From: an uncultured Gammaproteobacteria bacterium
Lineage (GTDB): Bacteria; Cyanobacteriota; Vampirovibrionia; LMEP-6097
Assembly (NCBI GenBank): GCA_964444015.1
Contig: CAYUFH010000003.1
Span: 9,180-41,073, forward strand
Direction of reading: 5' to 3'
DNA length: 31,894 nt
Shown: one piece after another, positions 3,434 to 31,894 of the stretch
Layout of the letters: every line of letters starts with the position of its first letter
How positions within the stretch are numbered: the stretch's first letter is position 1
Position numbers and translations under genes: made by a program
Notes under the pieces: generated by a model
The model's database searches: none
What the model was told of the DNA's origin: nothing
What the model saw: only the letters and a program-made list of their open reading frames with translations

Positions 3434-3943
3434 ATGGGCCGCGCCAAACAACAAAAGAAACTTAAAGAAATGCGTGCCGCAGCAACTAAGAGCGGCAAGG
3501 CTACCGTTGCCCAAAACCGTAAAGCAGCTTTCGACTATAAATTAGGCAAAGAAATAATCGCAGGTATAGTCTTGCAAGGCACAGAGGTTAAATCTGTACG
3601 TCTAGGACAAGTTCAACTTAAGGGCTGCTACGCCAAAATTATCGACAATGAAGCTTGGTTGTTTAACTGCCAAATCGCGGAGTATAGTCATGGCTCATAT
3701 AAGCATGACCCCGCGCGTGCCAAAAAACTACTACTCAAGCGCGCAGAATTAGAGCGCATAGAGTTTGAGCTAGCCACTACTAATAAGACCCTAGTCGCTA
3801 CTAAGGTATTTTTCAGAGGTAACTACGCCAAAGTCAACCTAAGTCTAGCTGAAGGTAAAAAGCAGCACGATAAACGTGACACGCTTAAACGCAAAGCGCA
3901 GCAGCGAGACATAGACAGAGAAGTGTCAAAGTATAATCGTTAG
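3434..3943 (+). CDS. smpB: SsrA-binding protein SmpB
   Basis: NRKAAFDY, AGIVLQGTEVKSVR, RAKKLLL and KKQHDKRDTLK motifs. Confidence 0.97.
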   Translation: MGRAKQQKKLKEMRAAATKSGKATVAQNRKAAFDYKLGKEIIAGIVLQGTEVKSVRLGQVQLKGCYAKIIDNEAWLFNCQIAEYSHGSYKHDPARAKKLLLKRAELERIEFELATTNKTLVATKVFFRGNYAKVNLSLAEGKKQHDKRDTLKRKAQQRDIDREVSKYNR

Positions 3944-4588: not shown

Positions 4589-4627
4589 GGGTTTTTACGG
4601 GTTATTTGGGGCTAAGGTTAAGAGCTC

Positions 4628-5371
4628 TTAACTTGCTGGCTGTTTTAGTTGAGAGAGAATCTCATTAATAAAGCGACGCTCAGAAACCGTAGTGTCATCT
4701 AAACCATTGATCCATTTGAGGTAACCATCGTGCACTAGTGAGACTTTTTCAGCTTTATGTTTGCCTTGCTTAAAATAGGTGGCTTGGTCTTCTTTAACTT
4801 CAAACCATTTACCAAGTACAGAGGTACTCCCAATAGTCTCGCGTTCTACATGCTCATAACCGTGGCTAAAAAGTTCTGGGTATTTGATTTCTTGCTGCTC
4901 TAATATCTCACGAGTCGCACGAATATCGACAATAGCATTGTGAGCATTCTCTAGTGGTTTACCAGTGTAGTAATGATAAGCGTTACTAAGATTATGCGGA
5001 AACATTTTACGGAAAATCTTATAAGGATCTATAAAAGTATAATTACGTTCATTAAGATCGAACCCTATACTGCGATTCAACTCTGACTGCAAAAACTGAA
5101 AATCAAAAATCCCATTATAGGCAACGAAAGCCTCAGCTGCGGTTAGCATATCGCGAACCCGCTCAGCTACTTCACCAAACTTAGGTGCATCTTTGACCAT
5201 GGCATTAGTAATGCCGTGAATAGCAGTTGCTTCATCAGGAATTACTCGCTCTGGATTAATAAGCGAAGAAAATTCTGTACCATCGATATTGATGATAGCG
5301 ATTTGACAAATACGGTCTTTAACAGCGTCTACGCCAGTAGTCTCTAAATCTATAAAAAGTTTTTTAGTCAT
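4628..5371 (-). CDS. DEDDh 3'-5' exonuclease (DnaQ/ExoX-like)
   Basis: Exo I DLETTG, Exo II YNGIFD, Exo III HNAIVD; extra C-terminal FKQGKHK...DGYLKW segment. Confidence 0.88.
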   Translation of the reverse strand: MTKKLFIDLETTGVDAVKDRICQIAIINIDGTEFSSLINPERVIPDEATAIHGITNAMVKDAPKFGEVAERVRDMLTAAEAFVAYNGIFDFQFLQSELNRSIGFDLNERNYTFIDPYKIFRKMFPHNLSNAYHYYTGKPLENAHNAIVDIRATREILEQQEIKYPELFSHGYEHVERETIGSTSVLGKWFEVKEDQATYFKQGKHKAEKVSLVHDGYLKWINGLDDTTVSERRFINEILSQLKQPAS

Positions 5372-25942: not shown

Positions 25943-28091
25943 ATAGTTTTTTGTAGGTCCAATAGTTGGCTAGAACCTTTTTGACGTAATTGCGAGTTTC
26001 GCTGTATGGAATATCTTCGATAAATAAATCCATATCAGTAGCACCTTTATTCATCCATTGAGCTACGGCTGTTGGTCCAGCATTGTATGAAGCGACGGCG
26101 CAAACCATATTGTTAGAAAATCTCTCGAACACATCCTCCATATATCTAATACCAAGCTTGATATTAATTGCCGGGTCTTTAAGTGCATTAATATCTGGTG
26201 AACTGATACTTAATCTGCGTGCTAGATCACGCGCTGTAAACGGCATCACTTGCATTAAACCTACTGCTCCAGCTTTACTGTTGATGTCAGGTCTATAGTG
26301 AGACTCTTGTTTGATCAAAGCTTGTGCCAGCATTGGATCTACTAAGCGACGCTTACCAGCTTCATCAGCGATTAAATCTGCGTATGGTAGTGGGTAAGCG
26401 AAGAATAACCTCTTATCGCTAACATCGATATTACCCTTCATATGTTCTACCGCCATATGTCCGGTTTTGATAGCTGAATAAGTGTCGCCAGCCTGAGCAT
26501 ATAACCACATCTTGAGATTCTCATCGAGCTTGTATTGATTAGCTTCACCGTCAGAATCTAATAAAGCACTATATTGTTCAATCGCAATTAATTCAGCAAC
26601 TTCATTACCGTAACGTTCTTGCAACTCATCTTCAGTAGCTATATCTGGCCAACGCCAATTAGGGTAAGAGCTAAACTCGTTAACTCCCGGTAGTAGATAC
26701 CATTTATTCTTCTTAGCAAGAACTTGCTCAGCCCTGAAACGATAGTAATCAAGCGGGTGTTCTTCAATGATATTTTGCAAAGTAGCATTCGCCATATTGT
26801 TATCACCCTGCTGCTGCCAGAGTTTAGCTGCCCAAAACGCGACGAAAGCATGAGATTTAGACTCTGGATATCTTTCCCAATGTTGCTTAGCTATAGCCAG
26901 AGCATTATGATTAGCTCCGCGCTTATACTCTTTCCAGAACACAGTCGCCATGCTCTCTGGAGCGTAGAAACTATCAGGATAGCCCTCGTAAATAGCTTGA
27001 TAATCCTCTTTGATTTTGGAGAGTTCAGCGATATGCCACAAGACTTTATCGCGATGTTTCTGCATGCGTGGGGCAAGAGTACGCAGCTGATTTATGCTTG
27101 CTGTTTCTGAACTGAGACCTAAGAGATACTCAATAGCATTCTTAGCAACTTCATCATTAGCCTCGCCTGGTATACGTCTATAAAGTAGCGCTAGTGCTTC
27201 TTGTCTTTTGCCAGCCTTAGCAAGAGCGGTAGCGTGTTCTAGTAATGGTGAGCCATTGGCGTTGAAATAACTTAGGGCTTTACTGTAATCACCATGACTG
27301 TAATAACTTAGCCCCAGTTCTTTATGCAAGTCTGCAAATTGTTTACGCTCGGCATCAGTCATGCCCGCAACTTCATCGGCGACTAAACTAGCTAAATTTC
27401 CCATAGGACTTTTAACTAAGTAGTTACGCAGATAAGCTATCTTGCATTCTCTATCATCAGCACCACAAAGATTCGCTAAATAGTAATTAGAACCAATAGC
27501 AAAATCAGACTCGGGAGCACTAGCCTGCACTGCCATAAACTTGTCGCGCGCCTTTTCGACTGCGTTTTGGCGTAAATATGATTTAGCCAGTTCGTAGCTA
27601 TAACGCGGGTCCTTAGAGAATTTCTGCGCTAGATTTTCGTAGATTTCTGTCGCCAGGCGTTCAAGCCCGATGCGCTCTGCCATCTTAGCGAGCTTGTAAC
27701 TAGCGAAACGCGGCAAATAATCTCTATCTATAAGGTAGTAATAATGGAAGGCTAAAGCTTCTTCACCCATTTTTTCATAGATGGCAGCGAGCAAGACATT
27801 ACGTCTATTCTCAAGTTTAGTTGGCAAGCCACTAAAACTATCTAATTGACTTGTACCTAATTTAGCGTCAGTTTTAGCTAGAGTATAAGCTGTGCGAATT
27901 TTGGCTTCAAGTGCTTTAAATTCAGCATCACTTACTCTTGGTCCACTGCTAGAAATATCAGTATAAAAATATACAGCGAAGGCAACCGCGAGAGCAGCAA
28001 CTGCCGCGTACACTATGCGTAATTTTGAAGATTTGAAATTGCCTGATTTTAGTCCTGGTAATTTGATATCAGGGATTCGTAGTTTCGCCAC
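25935..28091 (-). CDS. slt: Slt-type lytic transglycosylase with N-terminal TM anchor and TPR-like helices (track start 28130; GTG at 28091 preferred)
   Basis: IKQESHY, AGAVGLMQVMP, SYNAGP and IPYSETRNYVKKV motifs. TATAAT (28104-28099) is 7 nt before GTG 28091; the track start lies inside a repeat. Confidence 0.88.
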   Translation of the reverse strand: MAKLRIPDIKLPGLKSGNFKSSKLRIVYAAVAALAVAFAVYFYTDISSSGPRVSDAEFKALEAKIRTAYTLAKTDAKLGTSQLDSFSGLPTKLENRRNVLLAAIYEKMGEEALAFHYYYLIDRDYLPRFASYKLAKMAERIGLERLATEIYENLAQKFSKDPRYSYELAKSYLRQNAVEKARDKFMAVQASAPESDFAIGSNYYLANLCGADDRECKIAYLRNYLVKSPMGNLASLVADEVAGMTDAERKQFADLHKELGLSYYSHGDYSKALSYFNANGSPLLEHATALAKAGKRQEALALLYRRIPGEANDEVAKNAIEYLLGLSSETASINQLRTLAPRMQKHRDKVLWHIAELSKIKEDYQAIYEGYPDSFYAPESMATVFWKEYKRGANHNALAIAKQHWERYPESKSHAFVAFWAAKLWQQQGDNNMANATLQNIIEEHPLDYYRFRAEQVLAKKNKWYLLPGVNEFSSYPNWRWPDIATEDELQERYGNEVAELIAIEQYSALLDSDGEANQYKLDENLKMWLYAQAGDTYSAIKTGHMAVEHMKGNIDVSDKRLFFAYPLPYADLIADEAGKRRLVDPMLAQALIKQESHYRPDINSKAGAVGLMQVMPFTARDLARRLSISSPDINALKDPAINIKLGIRYMEDVFERFSNNMVCAVASYNAGPTAVAQWMNKGATDMDLFIEDIPYSETRNYVKKVLANYWTYKKLYA

Positions 28092-28116
28092 AATCAATAT
28101 TATATATGTAGTACTT

Positions 28117-28187
28117 GTCATCCTGAGCACGAAGTGCGAAGGATCACCGTGCGCTATCTAGAGATCCTTCGCTGTGCTCAGGATGAC
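28117..28187. repeat. Palindromic REP-like element, family B
   Basis: GTCATCCTGAGCAC/GTGCTCAGGATGAC (14 bp) plus GCGAAGGATC/GATCCTTCGC (10 bp), with a 17-nt loop. Confidence 0.85.
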
Positions 28188-28195
28188 GCTACGCG

Positions 28196-29266
28196 TCACT
28201 TATTTGCCAACTGTCCGCAGGCTGCGTCGATATCATGTCCTCGTTCTCTGCGTGTAGTTACAGTTTTATTACGACTTGCTGTCTCTAAGGTCTGAGCGAA
28301 AGCCCTAATAGTCGTGTCTGATGATCTTTGGAATGGATCGGTCACATCAGTGGTGTTGTAAGGAATTAAATTGATATTGCAATGTAAGTGTTGTACTAGT
28401 TTACCTAGCGATTCTGCTTTAGCTTGCGAATCGTTACGATCACGCAGCATCGCATATTCTATAGTCACACGGCGATTAGTTTTATCGACGTAATTCTGCA
28501 AAGCAGCGATCACTTCTTTAACCGGCCACTTCTTGTTAATCGGTACTAAGTAATCTCTATCGGCATCATCAGGATCGTGCAGACTCAAAGCAAGATTTAC
28601 TTGCATTCCTTCTTCAGCAAGTTTCAGCATCGCTGGCACCACACCACTGGTAGAAACAGTAATATGACGCACGCCGATTCCAACTAGATGACGAAATTTA
28701 TTAATCGAAGAGACCACATTATCGTAGTTATTGAGCGGCTCTCCCTGCCCCATGAATACTAGGTTATCGATGCGCTCACCAGTAATATGCTGCATCAATA
28801 GAACTTGCTCTATGATCTCATCAGCACTTAGATTACGTTTGAAACCTACAGTACCCGTCGCACAGAATGGACATTTCACCGCGCAACCAACTTGTGAGCT
28901 GATGCAGGCTGTGATTCGCGTTTTAGGATCCTCGTCTTCATTGAGCGGTACATTAGTCATCGGCATAAATACCGACTCTATAGTGTCACCATGCAAAGTT
29001 GCGAATAAAAATTTCTGAGTGCCGTCTTGGCTGATCTGATGTTTAGCTATGCTCAGTGATCCGATAGGATTAGCGGCGAGTAACTCGCGTGCCTTCGGTG
29101 AAAGATCCGTCATCTTAGTCGGGTCACGCTCTGATTTAGAATATATCCATTTAAAGATTTGCTTAGCTCTGAATTTCTCTAAGCCTAGGCTTAGAACGTG
29201 GGTTTCTAGCTCAGTCATGTCCATGCCGATTAGGGGTTTATAAGTAGTAGTGGCGTCTGCAGGCAC
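28196..29266 (-). CDS. rlmN: Dual-specificity RNA methyltransferase RlmN
   Basis: CISSQVGCAVKCPFCATG, MGQGEP, STSG and IDAACGQL motifs. Extended -10 TG-C-TAAAAT is 9 nt before the GTG. Confidence 0.95.
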   Translation of the reverse strand: MPADATTTYKPLIGMDMTELETHVLSLGLEKFRAKQIFKWIYSKSERDPTKMTDLSPKARELLAANPIGSLSIAKHQISQDGTQKFLFATLHGDTIESVFMPMTNVPLNEDEDPKTRITACISSQVGCAVKCPFCATGTVGFKRNLSADEIIEQVLLMQHITGERIDNLVFMGQGEPLNNYDNVVSSINKFRHLVGIGVRHITVSTSGVVPAMLKLAEEGMQVNLALSLHDPDDADRDYLVPINKKWPVKEVIAALQNYVDKTNRRVTIEYAMLRDRNDSQAKAESLGKLVQHLHCNINLIPYNTTDVTDPFQRSSDTTIRAFAQTLETASRNKTVTTRRERGHDIDAACGQLANK

Positions 29267-29327
29267 GGAAGGCTGATTTTAGCATATTTGTGATACTTAT
29301 TAATTGCAGCGTAATTCTGATATATGC

Positions 29328-29642
29328 ATGTCAAAATTACGGACTAAAAGCCTTGTCCTGAGCCAATTTATATGAATAGTTAGCAAAATAAGCCTGATAT
29401 GTATTGAACTAATGGTTAAGCGAATACGTGCGATAAAACCTAGAGTGATAGTTTTACCTGAAGATGGTGTGGGTACAGGGATTGCTAATTTACCATTGGG
29501 CGCTCCGGCAACTTTTGCTGCACTCAATGAAATTTTAAAACAAGAAATTGGTGTAGCTATGCAGCTTACAAATAGAGGTTGGCGCTTTGAGGCTGCTCTT
29601 AATACTAGGCCTGCCAATGAAGAGTTAGCTCTCGCAGCTTAA
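29328..29642 (+). pseudogene. Small ORF (29412-29642, 76 aa), possibly the remnant of a longer frame broken by one TGA
   Basis: ATG 29328 is in frame with ATG 29412, with a single TGA at 29373-29375. Contains VLPEDGVGTGIANLP and ends ANEELALAA. Confidence 0.35.
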
Positions 29643-29679
29643 GCCCCGCGCAAGAATAATTCTTTAGCAATAATCAATC
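29638..29679. repeat. Direct repeat copy 1 (displaced 3' end of the acyl-CoA dehydrogenase; att-like)
   Basis: 39/42 identical to 31133-31174; the minus strand encodes [12 protein letters not shown]. Confidence 0.85.
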
Positions 29680-31132
29680 CAGAATGCCCTTACTTAAATA
29701 TGAGTATAAATTAATCTTACCCCACCCGTCTGCTTGCTATTATATATGTAAGGGTTAATTTGGCATGGATTACACAAACCAGCTGGATATTGCTATTTAT
29801 GAGGCTAAGGACGGGCAACTTGCTATTGACGTCAAACTTGAGAATGACACGGTTTGGCTTAGCCAGAAGCAAATGTCTCAACTCTTTAAGAAGGATGTAA
29901 GGACGATAAATGAGCATATACAGAATGTTTATAACGAAGAAGAATTAGATCCTATTCCAACTATCCGGAATTTCCGGATAGTTCAAAATGAAGGTAATAG
30001 AGAGATTTCGCGGGAGCTCGATTTTTATAATCTTGACGTCGTTATTTCCGTTGGTTACCGTGTTAAATCAAAAGAAGGCATCCAATTTAGGATCTGGGCA
30101 ACCAAGATTCTGCGTGAACACCTCGTCCAGGGTTTTACTATCAACCAGAAGCAATTACAAACTAAAGGTCTTAAGGAATTTGAGAATGCTGTTGCTTTAA
30201 TCAGAAATGTAATTTCTAATACGGAGCTAACCAATGATCAAAGTCTTGGTTTGCTTGACGTAGTTACCAAATACGCTAGCTCCTGGGCTCTATTGCAGCA
30301 ATATGACGACAATAAATTAATCCAACCCAAAAATTCGTCAAAGCCAATCTTCGCTCTGGACTATAGTGAAGCTCAAAATGCCATTGCTATTTTAAAGAAT
30401 CAGTTGCTTCAAAGCAATAAATTTATAAGTCTTTTTGGCAAAGAAAGAGATGAAATGTTTGCAGCTGTAATGGGTAACATTTATCAAACTTTTGATCGTG
30501 ACGAACTATACCCCAACATTGAATCTAAAGCTGCTCACCTACTGTATTTCATAATAAAAGACCACCCCTTCTTTGATGGCAACAAACGAATAGCATCTCT
30601 TTTATTTATTGTATTCTTGGCAAAAAATAATTATTTGTTAGATGTTAAGGGTGAGCGTAAATTTAATGACAATGCACTTGTTGCATTAGCTCTATTGGTG
30701 GCAGAAAGTGATCCAAAACAAAAGGAAATTATGATTTTGTTGATTATGAATTTAATAGCGGGAGGTTTTTAATGGAGCAAGGTAAATATCACGAATTAAA
30801 CGAGGTTGAAGAGTGGCTTAAATCTCAAGCTTATATATCAGGGCTTGATGAGTGTGAATGCTCAAATCTACTTAGAGGCTGGTTTAAGTATGATGGTTTG
30901 CGCGAGAGAGTACTATCAAAACTAAATCTAAAAGAAGCCGAGAAGAATAACAAAAATAAGAAGACAGTAGCTCTTATAGGTTCTATCCTCGGGGAACTAG
31001 AAGATATTTTACGTGAGGAATTATGGGACTACGCTCATACTCTTGAAACGAGCAGAGAAAAAGTTCAGGAGTTTGTCCTAGGACTAGGTATAGGCCACTA
31101 CTTAAGAGCAGGATCAAGTCCGAAGGCTAAAT
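29680..31132. mobile_element. ~1.45-kb genomic islet inserted at the acyl-CoA dehydrogenase 3' end; no integrase inside
   Basis: Bounded by the 42-bp direct repeats; carries a RhuM-Fic gene and an ORFan. Confidence 0.75.
29765..30772 (+). CDS. RhuM-family N-terminal domain plus Fic/Doc domain protein
   Basis: TVWLSQKQM, YNLDVVISVGYRVKS and QFRIWAT (RhuM-like); HPFFDGNKR (Fic/Doc motif). Confidence 0.88.
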   Translation: MDYTNQLDIAIYEAKDGQLAIDVKLENDTVWLSQKQMSQLFKKDVRTINEHIQNVYNEEELDPIPTIRNFRIVQNEGNREISRELDFYNLDVVISVGYRVKSKEGIQFRIWATKILREHLVQGFTINQKQLQTKGLKEFENAVALIRNVISNTELTNDQSLGLLDVVTKYASSWALLQQYDDNKLIQPKNSSKPIFALDYSEAQNAIAILKNQLLQSNKFISLFGKERDEMFAAVMGNIYQTFDRDELYPNIESKAAHLLYFIIKDHPFFDGNKRIASLLFIVFLAKNNYLLDVKGERKFNDNALVALALLVAESDPKQKEIMILLIMNLIAGGF

Positions 31133-31137
31133 CTTAA
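30772..31137 (+). CDS. Hypothetical protein coupled to RhuM-Fic
   Basis: 121 aa; TAATG overlap with the upstream gene; stop overlaps the dehydrogenase stop. Confidence 0.65.
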
Positions 31138-31174
31138 GCTCCACGCAAGAACAATTCTTTAGCAATAATCAATC
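31133..31174. repeat. Direct repeat copy 2 (functional 3' end of the acyl-CoA dehydrogenase; att-like)
   Basis: 39/42 identical to 29638-29679. Confidence 0.85.
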
Positions 31175-31894
31175 TCTGTATCTGTGAAGTACCTTCATAG
31201 ATTTGATAGATCTTCGCGTCGCGCATTAATTTTTCAACAGGATACTCGCGAGAATAACCATAACCACCGAATATTTGCACTGCGTTAGTTGAGTGTTTCA
31301 TCGCAGCATCGGCAGCGAAACCTTTAGCGAAGCTAGCGAACTTAGTATTACGCACGCCGCTATCGATCATGCAAGCAGATTTCCAAGTAAGTAATCTAGC
31401 TGCTTCATAATCCATCGCCATGTCAGCAACCATAAAACTTATAGCTTGGTGCATCGCGATTGGCACACCAAAAGAAGTTCTTTCCATAGCGTACTGTTTA
31501 GAGTTCTCTAATGATGCGCGGATAATAGAGGTCGCACCAGCTGCTACAGTAGGACGAGTTCTATCAAAAGCACCCATAGTGAATTTGAAGCCATCACCTT
31601 CAGCACCAAGACGATTCGCTGCTGGAATTTTTACATTCTCGAAACTTACAGCATGAGTAGAGCTTGCGCGCTGACCCATCATATCTTCTTTTTTCTGCAC
31701 GGTTACACCTGGCAGATCTGCTGGCACTACAAAGCTTGAAAGTCCTTTGTGACCTGCGTTAGGATCAGTTACCGCTAGTACATAGAACCATTTAGCGTAC
31801 TTAGCACCAGTGATCCATTGTTTGTTACCGTTGATAATATACTCGTCACCAACTTTCTTAGCAGTAGTCTTCACGCCCGCCACGTCAGAACCGC
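31134..31894 (-). CDS. Acyl-CoA dehydrogenase, C-terminal part (runs off the right edge)
   Basis: The frame extends past the track start as GSDVAG. Motifs [38 protein letters not shown] and [10 protein letters not shown]. Confidence 0.95.

Follow-up and report, generated by a model that had tools for sequence, protein, structure and literature searches.

We describe a small genomic islet that is inserted at the 3' end of a gene for an acyl-CoA dehydrogenase (ACAD) and has left the old end of this gene behind as a relic. It lies in a stretch of 31,894 nt (G000:C3:9180-41073), called the window here, from a metagenome-assembled genome (MAG) of an uncultured freshwater Melainabacterium (Caenarcaniphilales, non-photosynthetic Cyanobacteriota), and the contig stops within ACAD. 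Two genes, one for a fusion of a RhuM domain with a Doc-type Fic domain (RhuM-Fic, 335 aa) and the other for a protein of 121 aa (orf121), are all that lies between two copies of the last ACAD codons, as an earlier note on this DNA had stated. It is quite possible, though short of probable, that this two-gene islet of 1.45 kb was joined to the chromosome by homology-driven recombination across an element-borne copy of the ACAD tail.

The end of ACAD is present twice

A direct repeat of 42 nt is formed by 29638-29679 and 31133-31174, which are identical at 39 positions and spaced 1495 nt from start to start; no further direct repeat longer than 21 nt was found in the last 4.9 kb of the window (27000-31894). 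Each copy begins 1 nt past the ACAD stop and is made up of this 1 nt, the stop, 12 ACAD codons, and 2 nt more. Read on the minus strand, the two copies specify an identical end of 12 residues and the stop. The copy at 31133-31174, in an attR-like position, is continuous with the ACAD frame and is the functional 3' end, and the copy at 29638-29679, in an attL-like position, is the relic. Local alignment of the ACAD tail to all the downstream DNA gave z = 21.6 against shuffles. The three differences between the copies, TTA/TTG, CGC/CGT, and GGG/GGA, are all in third positions and synonymous. Recomputing the length, identity, offset, and synonymy of the repeats gave the same values as in the earlier note.

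The chance that three of three random substitutions are synonymous is 0.012 if all types are equally frequent and 0.085 if only transitions are counted. The all-synonymous differences are thus suggestive of two legitimate tail alleles, without being decisive. Both copies look like functional tail alleles, and the earlier proposal that the incoming copy came from a diverged allele is plausible to that extent. Compared to every sampled live tail the relic shows synonymous differences only. Its TTA codon is common only to alleles without the islet (C10, L134, and L009), while the TTG codon of the live copy is common to the islet-bearing L039 and L040 and also to the empty L131 and L133. In the MAG the tail 42-mer occurs three times, namely, in both repeat copies and in the ACAD tail of contig C10.

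The possibility that the relic is a piece of a larger, degraded ACAD duplication was ruled out because there is no further ACAD similarity in 29267-31132; tblastn and blastn-short searches of this segment with the full ACAD returned the last 12 residues only. The ACAD stop lies within the palindrome CTTAAG, and the same CTTAAG provides the TAA of a plus-strand open reading frame (ORF) that comes from the left; at the live tail this is orf121, and at the relic it is an ORF of 76 aa (orf76). The relic also holds a 13-nt palindrome, AAGAAT-A-ATTCTT, that has one mismatch in the functional copy, and there are no inverted repeats at 29680/31132.

Alleles without the islet

The earlier note had looked to relatives for an empty site in which a small ORF converges on the ACAD stop, and four such alleles were found among Caenarcaniphilales contigs, namely, C10 (L003), L131, L133, and L134. 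The last three came from a scan of metagenome contigs for the ACAD tail; a 29-mer of the tail matched four metagenome contigs and each match was a true ACAD tail. In C10, ACAD is followed by a convergent 78-aa ORF that overlaps the ACAD stop and then by rlmN, and there is no islet. The convergent ORFs, of 78-90 aa, terminate on the real ACAD stop in C10, L131, and L133. In L131, whose RlmN and Slt proteins are 95.5% and 94% identical to those of the window, the convergent ORF is 84 aa long and ends in GCAGCTTAAG on the true ACAD stop, and the window has the same GCAGCTTAAG junction at the relic. There it is formed by orf76 (29412-29642, plus strand), which is convergent with ACAD and belongs to the pre-insertion site and not to the islet. 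The relic occupies the position that is held by the true ACAD tail in the empty sites, and therefore 29680-31132 together with one copy of the repeat is inserted DNA. The islet is an insertion and the relic is the displaced old end of ACAD. Its composition bears out the earlier note in part, since the GC content is mildly low (37.0% compared to 40.7% for the genome, within the lowest 5% of genome stretches of the same size), but GC at third codon positions is not distinctive.

A chimeric assembly of two strains that were joined through their common tail sequence would give a similar picture, and the make-up of the bin is a reason to consider it. The MAG amounts to 1.49 Mb in 144 contigs and is 83% complete. 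Contig C10 of the MAG is a second syntenic version of the locus in which Slt, RlmN, and ACAD are 75-89% identical in nucleotide sequence to C3, two dprA genes are present in the bin (contigs C46 and C102), and the contig of the window ends inside ACAD. Given the second slt-rlmN-ACAD version and the pair of dprA genes, two related populations are probably mixed in the bin, even though its contamination estimate is 0.81%. However, a join through the repeat would itself require a tail copy in front of the islet. Moreover, run X1 has Logan contigs that span the two junctions at 100% identity (record 2 corresponds to 29312-30157 and record 6 to 31079-31273), although this run may derive from the window's own assembly sample and is not independent support. 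The contigs L040 and L039, which are from samples other than that of the window, have the same right junction, and on the left a relic is found in L039 at the same position. That the islet is an artefact of assembly is, in our judgement, scarcely credible.

Other occupied alleles and the age of the relics

In all three occupied lineages, the window, L040, and L039, orf121 is the constant gene that adjoins ACAD. L040, a JGI contig of 1019 bp, aligns to 30378-31396 at 84% identity, with 93% in the ACAD part, and its orf121/ACAD junction is identical in layout to that of the window. RhuM-Fic of L040 is 91% and orf121 70% identical to the window's proteins, with 84% nucleotide identity overall, and this divergence is about that of the host genes. 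The RhuM-Fic gene of L040 (L040 1-395) has an in-frame stop, by a change from Tyr, a few codons before its HPFFDGNKR motif while orf121 is open, which would be compatible with the toxin gene being costly. L039, a Logan contig of 8.7 kb, has the order slt, rlmN, a convergent gene that is split, an AAA_14/DUF4143 gene on the minus strand, an orf121 homologue (84%), and ACAD. Its AAA_14/DUF4143 cargo is the PADLOC candidate PDC-S01; RhuM-Fic is absent and a RhuM-Fic-type promoter motif lies directly before orf121. Apart from the window, the occupied lineages therefore carry two differently loaded islets, one with PDC-S23 and a broken toxin gene (L040) and one with PDC-S01 (L039).

In L039, just past the stop of the convergent gene and thus at the homologous position, there is a decayed tail-like stretch (4590-4637). 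It scores 37 against the window's tail and is the best tail-like alignment in 6.3 kb; the 300 shuffles for comparison, which gave at most 26, were made for alignment to L039's own tail. Numbered by tail positions, the L039 relic runs from -42 to +3 and the window relic from -38 to +4, so that the boundaries of the two relics known agree within about 4 nt. Such near-equal boundaries would fit one shared event and would also fit a joint that is guided by homology or by a site. No relic was seen in 24 other Caenarcaniphilales ACAD loci (z <=2.6). In the L039 relic there are some twelve substitutions and two indels, whereas the window relic has no difference that changes the peptide. Since the latter is nearly intact and the former is decayed, the window relic looks younger, and younger than the islet family. 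This, together with the patchy presence of the islet, suggests that islets were gained and lost repeatedly at one position and that their cargo was turned over.

Mosaicism is visible among the ACAD alleles of the genus. Over the final 263 nt of the gene, the occupied L040 is 96.6% identical to the empty L131 and L133, and the window is 93-94% identical to L040, L131, and L133. We withdraw the suggestion that about 230 nt of ACAD came in together with the islet (max-chi2 p = 0.026) because on adding L131, L133, and L134 the signal falls in C10 and L039.

The alternative to repeated gain and loss is one ancient displacement of the 3' end by homology-facilitated illegitimate recombination, followed by vertical inheritance, losses in some lineages through deletion between the repeats, and remodelling of the cargo. 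Linear DNA anchored in the body of ACAD would have been joined at its far end 42 nt before the recipient's stop, and the window relic would have stayed intact by chance or because the live tail converted it. The L040 islet, diverged about as much as the host genes, fits such an old residence. Displaced 3' ends are also a known scar in effector-immunity arrays of type VI secretion systems (T6SS) and in Rhs arrays (PMC5361080), and at ACAD too the old 3' end lies downstream of the incoming DNA, without a recombinase and with mosaic target alleles. Nevertheless, if the two relics were orthologous and neutral, about 12 or more changes would have to be placed on the L039 branch compared to 3 or fewer, an asymmetry for which a binomial estimate by hand gives about 0.02, and the window relic would have to have escaped any non-synonymous change. 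Conversion between 42-bp repeats that are 1.5 kb apart would itself be driven by homology, and the apparent breakpoint in ACAD lends no support because it reflects the histories of C10 and L039. A single old event is thus rather improbable.

How the islet may have been joined to ACAD

Neither RhuM-Fic nor orf121 has a recombinase domain, and the islet does not contain an integrase, relaxase, transposase, or other mobility gene. In the MAG (83% complete) no resolvase was found and there is one PF00589 match, which is Xer-like and lies between oppC and ispD. An integron cassette was rejected because the repeat is the coding end of ACAD and not an attC-type imperfect palindrome, and because the MAG has no integron integrase; the best match to a search for one was Xer-like and the integron models scored far under their cut-offs. 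A transposon or insertion sequence (IS) with target-site duplication was also rejected since there is no transposase, there are no inverted repeats, and the duplication is 42 nt long and non-identical.

We tentatively favour recombination by homology alone, which would have proceeded as follows. In this Caenarcaniphilales genus the gap between ACAD and rlmN is a small hot spot of accessory or defence genes. The incoming DNA would have consisted of a promoter, the RhuM-Doc/Fic gene (PDC-S23), orf121, and a copy of the last 12 ACAD codons, and it would have recombined with the chromosomal ACAD tail so that the incoming copy (31133-31174) now completes ACAD. The recipient's own tail would have been pushed 1495 bp downstream to survive as the untranslated relic (29638-29679) beside the old convergent ORF. 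A dedicated integrase would not be needed, as the tail copy linked to the element would offer a short stretch of homology. The exchange would then be a single crossover with a circle, or a double crossover with the tail copy on the left and ACAD itself as the right arm. RecA would catalyse the joining after DNA uptake, and the MAG does encode ComEC, DprA, and RecA. Recombination between the two repeats could later delete the islet and restore a perfect empty site.

Several observations weigh against this sequence of events. A repeat that extends from the crossover region to the end of the gene is equally expected from an attL/attR pair formed by site-specific recombination. Efficient RecA-dependent exchange requires a minimal processing segment, and 42 bp at 93% identity is near the lower limit. 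Homology by itself does not explain how the first tail copy came to lie beside the islet. The genes for ComEC, DprA, and RecA are common and are no proof of competence, and in a MAG that is 83% complete and probably contains two populations an integrase acting in trans could have been missed. Aligned to the tail of L039 itself, the L039 relic scores weakly (z = 1.5), and it is convincing only by its position and by its match to the window's tail. Lastly, no circle, excision joint, or empty-site contig was found among the Logan contigs of runs X1, X4, X5, and X6, which at 3-5x depth are uninformative on mobility.

The repeats could instead be the attL and attR of a tyrosine or serine integrase from a related integrative and conjugative element (ICE), integrative and mobilizable element (IME), prophage, or satellite, and the islet a decayed or cargo-only derivative similar to a cis-mobilizable element (CIME). 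It would then move only with an enzyme supplied in trans, or in cis by accretion. This alternative is less likely but deserves serious attention. Identity that runs from inside the gene to 1 nt past its stop, with the gene restored, is the classical design of elements that target 3' ends. The islet has the direct repeats of a CIME, an intact target gene, and no mobility gene inside. Relics of different age occupy the same position in two lineages, and the junction is constant while the cargo varies. CIMEs are documented in streptococci (PMC7563491) and remnants with partial tRNA copies in cyanobacteria (bioRxiv 10.1101/2020.12.28.424599), genomes of the family carry 2-11 tyrosine recombinases each, and elsewhere in the phylum a RhuM-Fic islet (L143) is flanked by an exact 42-nt tRNA 3' end.

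What is missing for a CIME is the integrase of an ICE or IME that uses the site. No integrase element was found near the ACAD tail in the genomes searched or in any locus that was fetched; among 23 family genomes with an ACAD orthologue there was no PF00589 match within 8 kb on the tail side of ACAD. A 22-mer of the tail had no match in the viral contigs of IMG/VR and only two unrelated matches in one genome per GTDB species. The sampling of the genus is thin in these searches. As mentioned above, the sole recombinase of the MAG is Xer-like, and the repeats show no evident inverted-repeat core with the usual 6-8-bp spacer but only the 13-nt palindrome. Of the earlier note's proposal of an att site in a metabolic gene, the insertion at the ACAD 3' end holds whereas the att site of a site-specific recombinase is a candidate, one of two live mechanisms. 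To its further idea that the islet lost its recombinase, no integrase-bearing relative with the tail came to light in IMG/VR or in one genome per GTDB species. The repeat pattern fits joining by homology and an attL/attR pair equally well. We give joining by homology a modest edge because no integrase element was found, because ACAD alleles recombine, and because the same footprint is seen on unrelated cargo and at diverse targets.

Repeats around accessory genes in the phylum

The last of these points comes from a survey of loci in the phylum in which a gene counted as bracketed if it lay between the two copies of a direct repeat that was 20 nt or longer and 85% or more identical. Such repeats bracket 6 of 29 RhuM-Fic genes and 4 of 27 AAA_14/DUF4143 genes. 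Among the controls, none of 65 ACAD genes and 2 of 150 random ORFs from the same genomes were bracketed. The difference between the pooled accessory genes (10/56) and the controls (2/215) is significant (Fisher p = 3e-6) while the rates for RhuM-Fic and DUF4143 are alike (Fisher p = 0.73). Therefore the footprint is generic for accessory cassettes and not specific for RhuM. It is a property of accessory cassettes in general, and the window is one instance of it in which the target is the 3' end of a protein gene.

The bracketing repeats are 32-156 nt long and of several kinds. The bracketed loci are L143, L146, L148, L151, L159, and L162 for RhuM-Fic and L166, L168, L176, and L187 for DUF4143. 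Besides the tRNA end of L143, the repeat is a promoter with the first codons of the next gene in L159, a terminator-like hairpin in L148, and, in L146, L151, and L162, a 70-mer that is kept at one locus across genera with two copies per genome.

If the RhuM domain mobilised its own gene, the islet would be a self-inserting single-gene cassette that makes long target duplications. Bracketing of 6 of the 29 RhuM-Fic genes and also of RhuM genes in L036 and L029 is what such self-insertion would predict. It is largely refuted, however, by the equal rate for the unrelated AAA_14/DUF4143 genes, and in L039 the islet and its junction persist without RhuM-Fic. The repeats also vary in length and kind (tRNA end, promoter with first codons, terminator-like, gene end). 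Self-mobility of RhuM is accordingly very improbable.

A broader proposal is that the tail copy is a portable homology handle, by which small single-gene defence cassettes in Vampirovibrionia are spread and lost without a dedicated recombinase. A copy of 30-150 nt of the target beside the cassette would recombine with the chromosomal target after DNA uptake. This would be a general route and not a single scar because repeats bracket 10 of the 56 PDC-S23 and PDC-S01 genes and 2 of the 215 controls. We offer it as a speculation that is on balance unlikely. If the tail copy is such a handle, then orf121, which always adjoins the joint, could favour or control the event rather than be the partner of the toxin.

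Two further loci came up in this work. One of the two bracketed random-ORF controls is lptF/G on contig C32 of the MAG, between two copies of a GC-rich motif (L196 1128-1175 and 2331-2378). This motif may be an interspersed palindromic repeat and not a target duplication, and repeats of this kind may give false brackets in surveys. In L029 (G005:C128) a 95-nt direct repeat with 88% identity (514-607 and 2101-2194), of which these are the only two copies in the genome, brackets a decayed RhuM gene in pieces of 132 aa and 124 aa next to what by eye is an IS3-type-like OrfA. The end of the repeat resembles the 3' end of a tRNA or tmRNA gene, which was rejected since ARAGORN and Rfam call no RNA gene there.

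The genes of the islet

The left end of the islet (29680-29764, plus strand) carries a promoter or leader motif (29735-29755) that is common to other RhuM-Fic cassettes. Similarity of the window to L036, L037, and L038 starts at 29735. In L036 and L038 the motif likewise precedes RhuM-Fic, and in L039 it directly precedes the orf121 homologue.

The RhuM-Fic gene (29765-30772, plus strand) was identified with Pfam, PADLOC, and PHROG. The protein matches PF13310 at residues 66-150 (E 2.5e-26) and PF02661 at residues 220-285 (E 9.4e-12), and over residues 6-332 it matches the PADLOC phage-defence candidate PDC-S23 (E 3.3e-132). Its Fic motif, HPFFDGNKR (residues 267-275, nt 30563-30589), is of the variant HxFxDGNKR, which we take to mark Doc-type enzymes, and its PHROG match is a Doc-like toxin. 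Homologues number more than 8000 across many phyla. A type II pair of the Phd-Doc kind was considered and rejected because there is no Phd-like gene upstream, the match to TIGR01550 is 37.1 and thus below the cut-off of 38.65, and orf121 has no match to an antitoxin family. Upstream of RhuM-Fic, where a Phd/YefM-type antitoxin was looked for, there are 85 nt of non-coding DNA and the relic.

The orf121 gene (30772-31137, plus strand) has an ATG start codon that shares bases with the RhuM-Fic stop (TAATG), and it terminates within the repeat. The earlier note had called it an ORFan, which is not so because homologues 60-86% identical exist (84% in L039, 70% in L040, and 60% in L038) and the family has 25 cluster representatives among 1.84 billion proteins. 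In L038 the homologue is again just after RhuM-Fic, which is 69% identical to the window's. Among the loci compared here, the pairing of the two genes was seen only in the window, L038, and L040, with a truncated form in L036. No match to orf121 was found in Pfam, PHROGs, PADLOC, or NCBIfam, no close relative in species genomes, and only unnamed clusters in the Atlas, with scores of 0.87-0.88. A first AF2 model was poor; in the second (pLDDT 85) the protein is all-helical with four helices, and this model had no match to a PDB fold at E <1. From the membership of the genes in their families we infer that the cargo is a candidate Doc-type (kinase-like) toxin or defence protein with a translationally coupled small partner.

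Distant orf121 homologues are found in tightly packed, co-directional, phage-like gene arrays (L041-L044 and L127-L130), upstream of N6/N4 or D12 DNA methyltransferases or a Mom-like gene, or after a Pnkp-like kinase-phosphatase-ligase. One distant member of the family occurs in 303 blocks of the contig collection.

Within RhuM-Fic, 29960-29982 is a 23-nt palindrome with arms of 11 nt and one central base that encodes TIRNFRIV. It is 89-100% identical at the DNA level in RhuM genes whose proteins are only 35-55% identical. A near copy is present in an intergenic region of L133, and many short groundwater contigs match just the palindrome.

The first and last 141 nt of L036, an ENA k141 contig of 5108 nt, are identical, and the molecule may thus be a circle of about 4967 bp. 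It holds only defence-type genes, namely, KilA-N, a 135-aa gene with no Pfam match, RhuM-Fic (75% identical to the window's), RhuM, and AAA_14/DUF4143, and no Rep or integrase was recognised in it. Its cassettes have short promoter and 3' linker segments in common: an exact 33-nt repeat (2365-2397 and 3475-3507) consists of the RhuM-Fic stop and the first 7 codons of an orf121-like gene, and a 56-nt segment of promoter plus first codons is common to two genes.

Comparison with known elements

Streptococcal CIMEs are 1.2-13 kb long and are found at the 3' ends of rpmG, rpsI, fda, and rplL (PMC7563491). The islet resembles them in that it has cargo only, direct repeats at the 3' end of a protein gene, no mobility gene, and an intact target. 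However, CIMEs are defined as decayed ICEs or IMEs whose att sites are used by the known integrase of a resident or incoming element, whereas for the islet no parent element or integrase of the site was found, and its host is a Melainabacterium, its target ACAD, and its cargo a defence candidate. In the same phylum, islands of Prochlorococcus contain tycheposon remnants that are separated by partial tRNA copies (bioRxiv 10.1101/2020.12.28.424599). They share with the islet the use of one attachment site, partial ends of target genes, and adaptive or defensive cargo, but tycheposons have tRNA or tmRNA genes as targets and tyrosine recombinases of their own, while the islet targets a protein gene and has no linked recombinase.

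For T6SS effector-immunity and Rhs/contact-dependent inhibition loci with displaced 3' ends, homologous and illegitimate recombination after uptake has been proposed (PMC5361080). There, as in the islet, the incoming module brings a new 3' end and the old end is orphaned downstream with no integrase. Those displaced ends encode different toxin domains and diversify the gene, whereas both ends at the islet encode the same 12 residues and the gain lies beyond the gene.

The cargo agrees with the PDC-S23 family in its full-length match, its HPFFDGNKR motif, and the lack of a Phd-like antitoxin upstream, and differs by the translationally coupled downstream gene from a rare, phage-associated family. 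Defence hot spots flanked by core genes are flexible islets between conserved genes. The ACAD-rlmN site likewise has conserved flanks and in relatives holds PDC-S23, PDC-S01, or nothing, but differs from such hot spots in that a precise duplicated gene end marks the joint.

Small islets without a recombinase are thus already known; what is unusual here is the host and the target, and that the anatomy is so well preserved. At this locus an intact target gene is found together with a displaced tail that differs only synonymously, with four alleles that lack an islet, and with two whose load differs, and it is an unusually clean record of gain and loss of defence-type genes in a streamlined uncultured lineage. 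If ordinary recombination on a carried 42-bp copy is responsible, then defence cassettes can circulate in lineages without integrases, plasmids, or conjugation, and a systematic search for such cassettes could be based on the repeat footprint. Should a trans-acting integrase come to light instead, CIME-type elements would gain a metabolic gene as target and a new branch of the phylum as host. RhuM-Doc and the rare phage-associated 121-aa protein are a tractable candidate pair for studies of toxicity and phage defence.

The neighbourhood of the islet

ACAD is represented in the window by its C-terminal 252 codons (31134-31894, minus strand; Pfam Acyl-CoA_dh_1 and Acyl-CoA_dh_M), and its nearest named loci are from Candidatus Caenarcanales, Melainabacteria, and Vampirovibrionia. 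The conserved left flank of the variable gap is rlmN (28196-29266, minus strand), which codes for a radical-SAM 23S rRNA/tRNA methyltransferase (Pfam RlmN_N and Radical_SAM). ACAD-RlmN-Slt synteny is general in Caenarcaniphilales, with ACAD-rlmN gaps of about 50 bp to 1.3 kb. Rfam, terminator, and promoter scans of 29200-31300 gave nothing above chance.

The convergent gene in this gap evolves fast. In L003, L005, L009, L013, L131, L133, and the window its product ranges from 76-90 aa to 299-302 aa, and L039 has the gene in two pieces. Its end coincides with the ACAD stop or overlaps it in C10, L009, L131, and L133, and likewise at the window's relic. The window's version, orf76, has a weak, sub-threshold match to the C-terminus of DUF7831 in Pfam and is 32% identical to the C-terminus of the 299-aa convergent gene in L009. 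Upstream of orf76, 29310-29341 is a 32-nt near-palindrome that is single-copy in the MAG and looks like an operator. At the same place L131 and L133 have two tandem copies of it, and in L039 two copies lie instead between AAA_14 and orf121.

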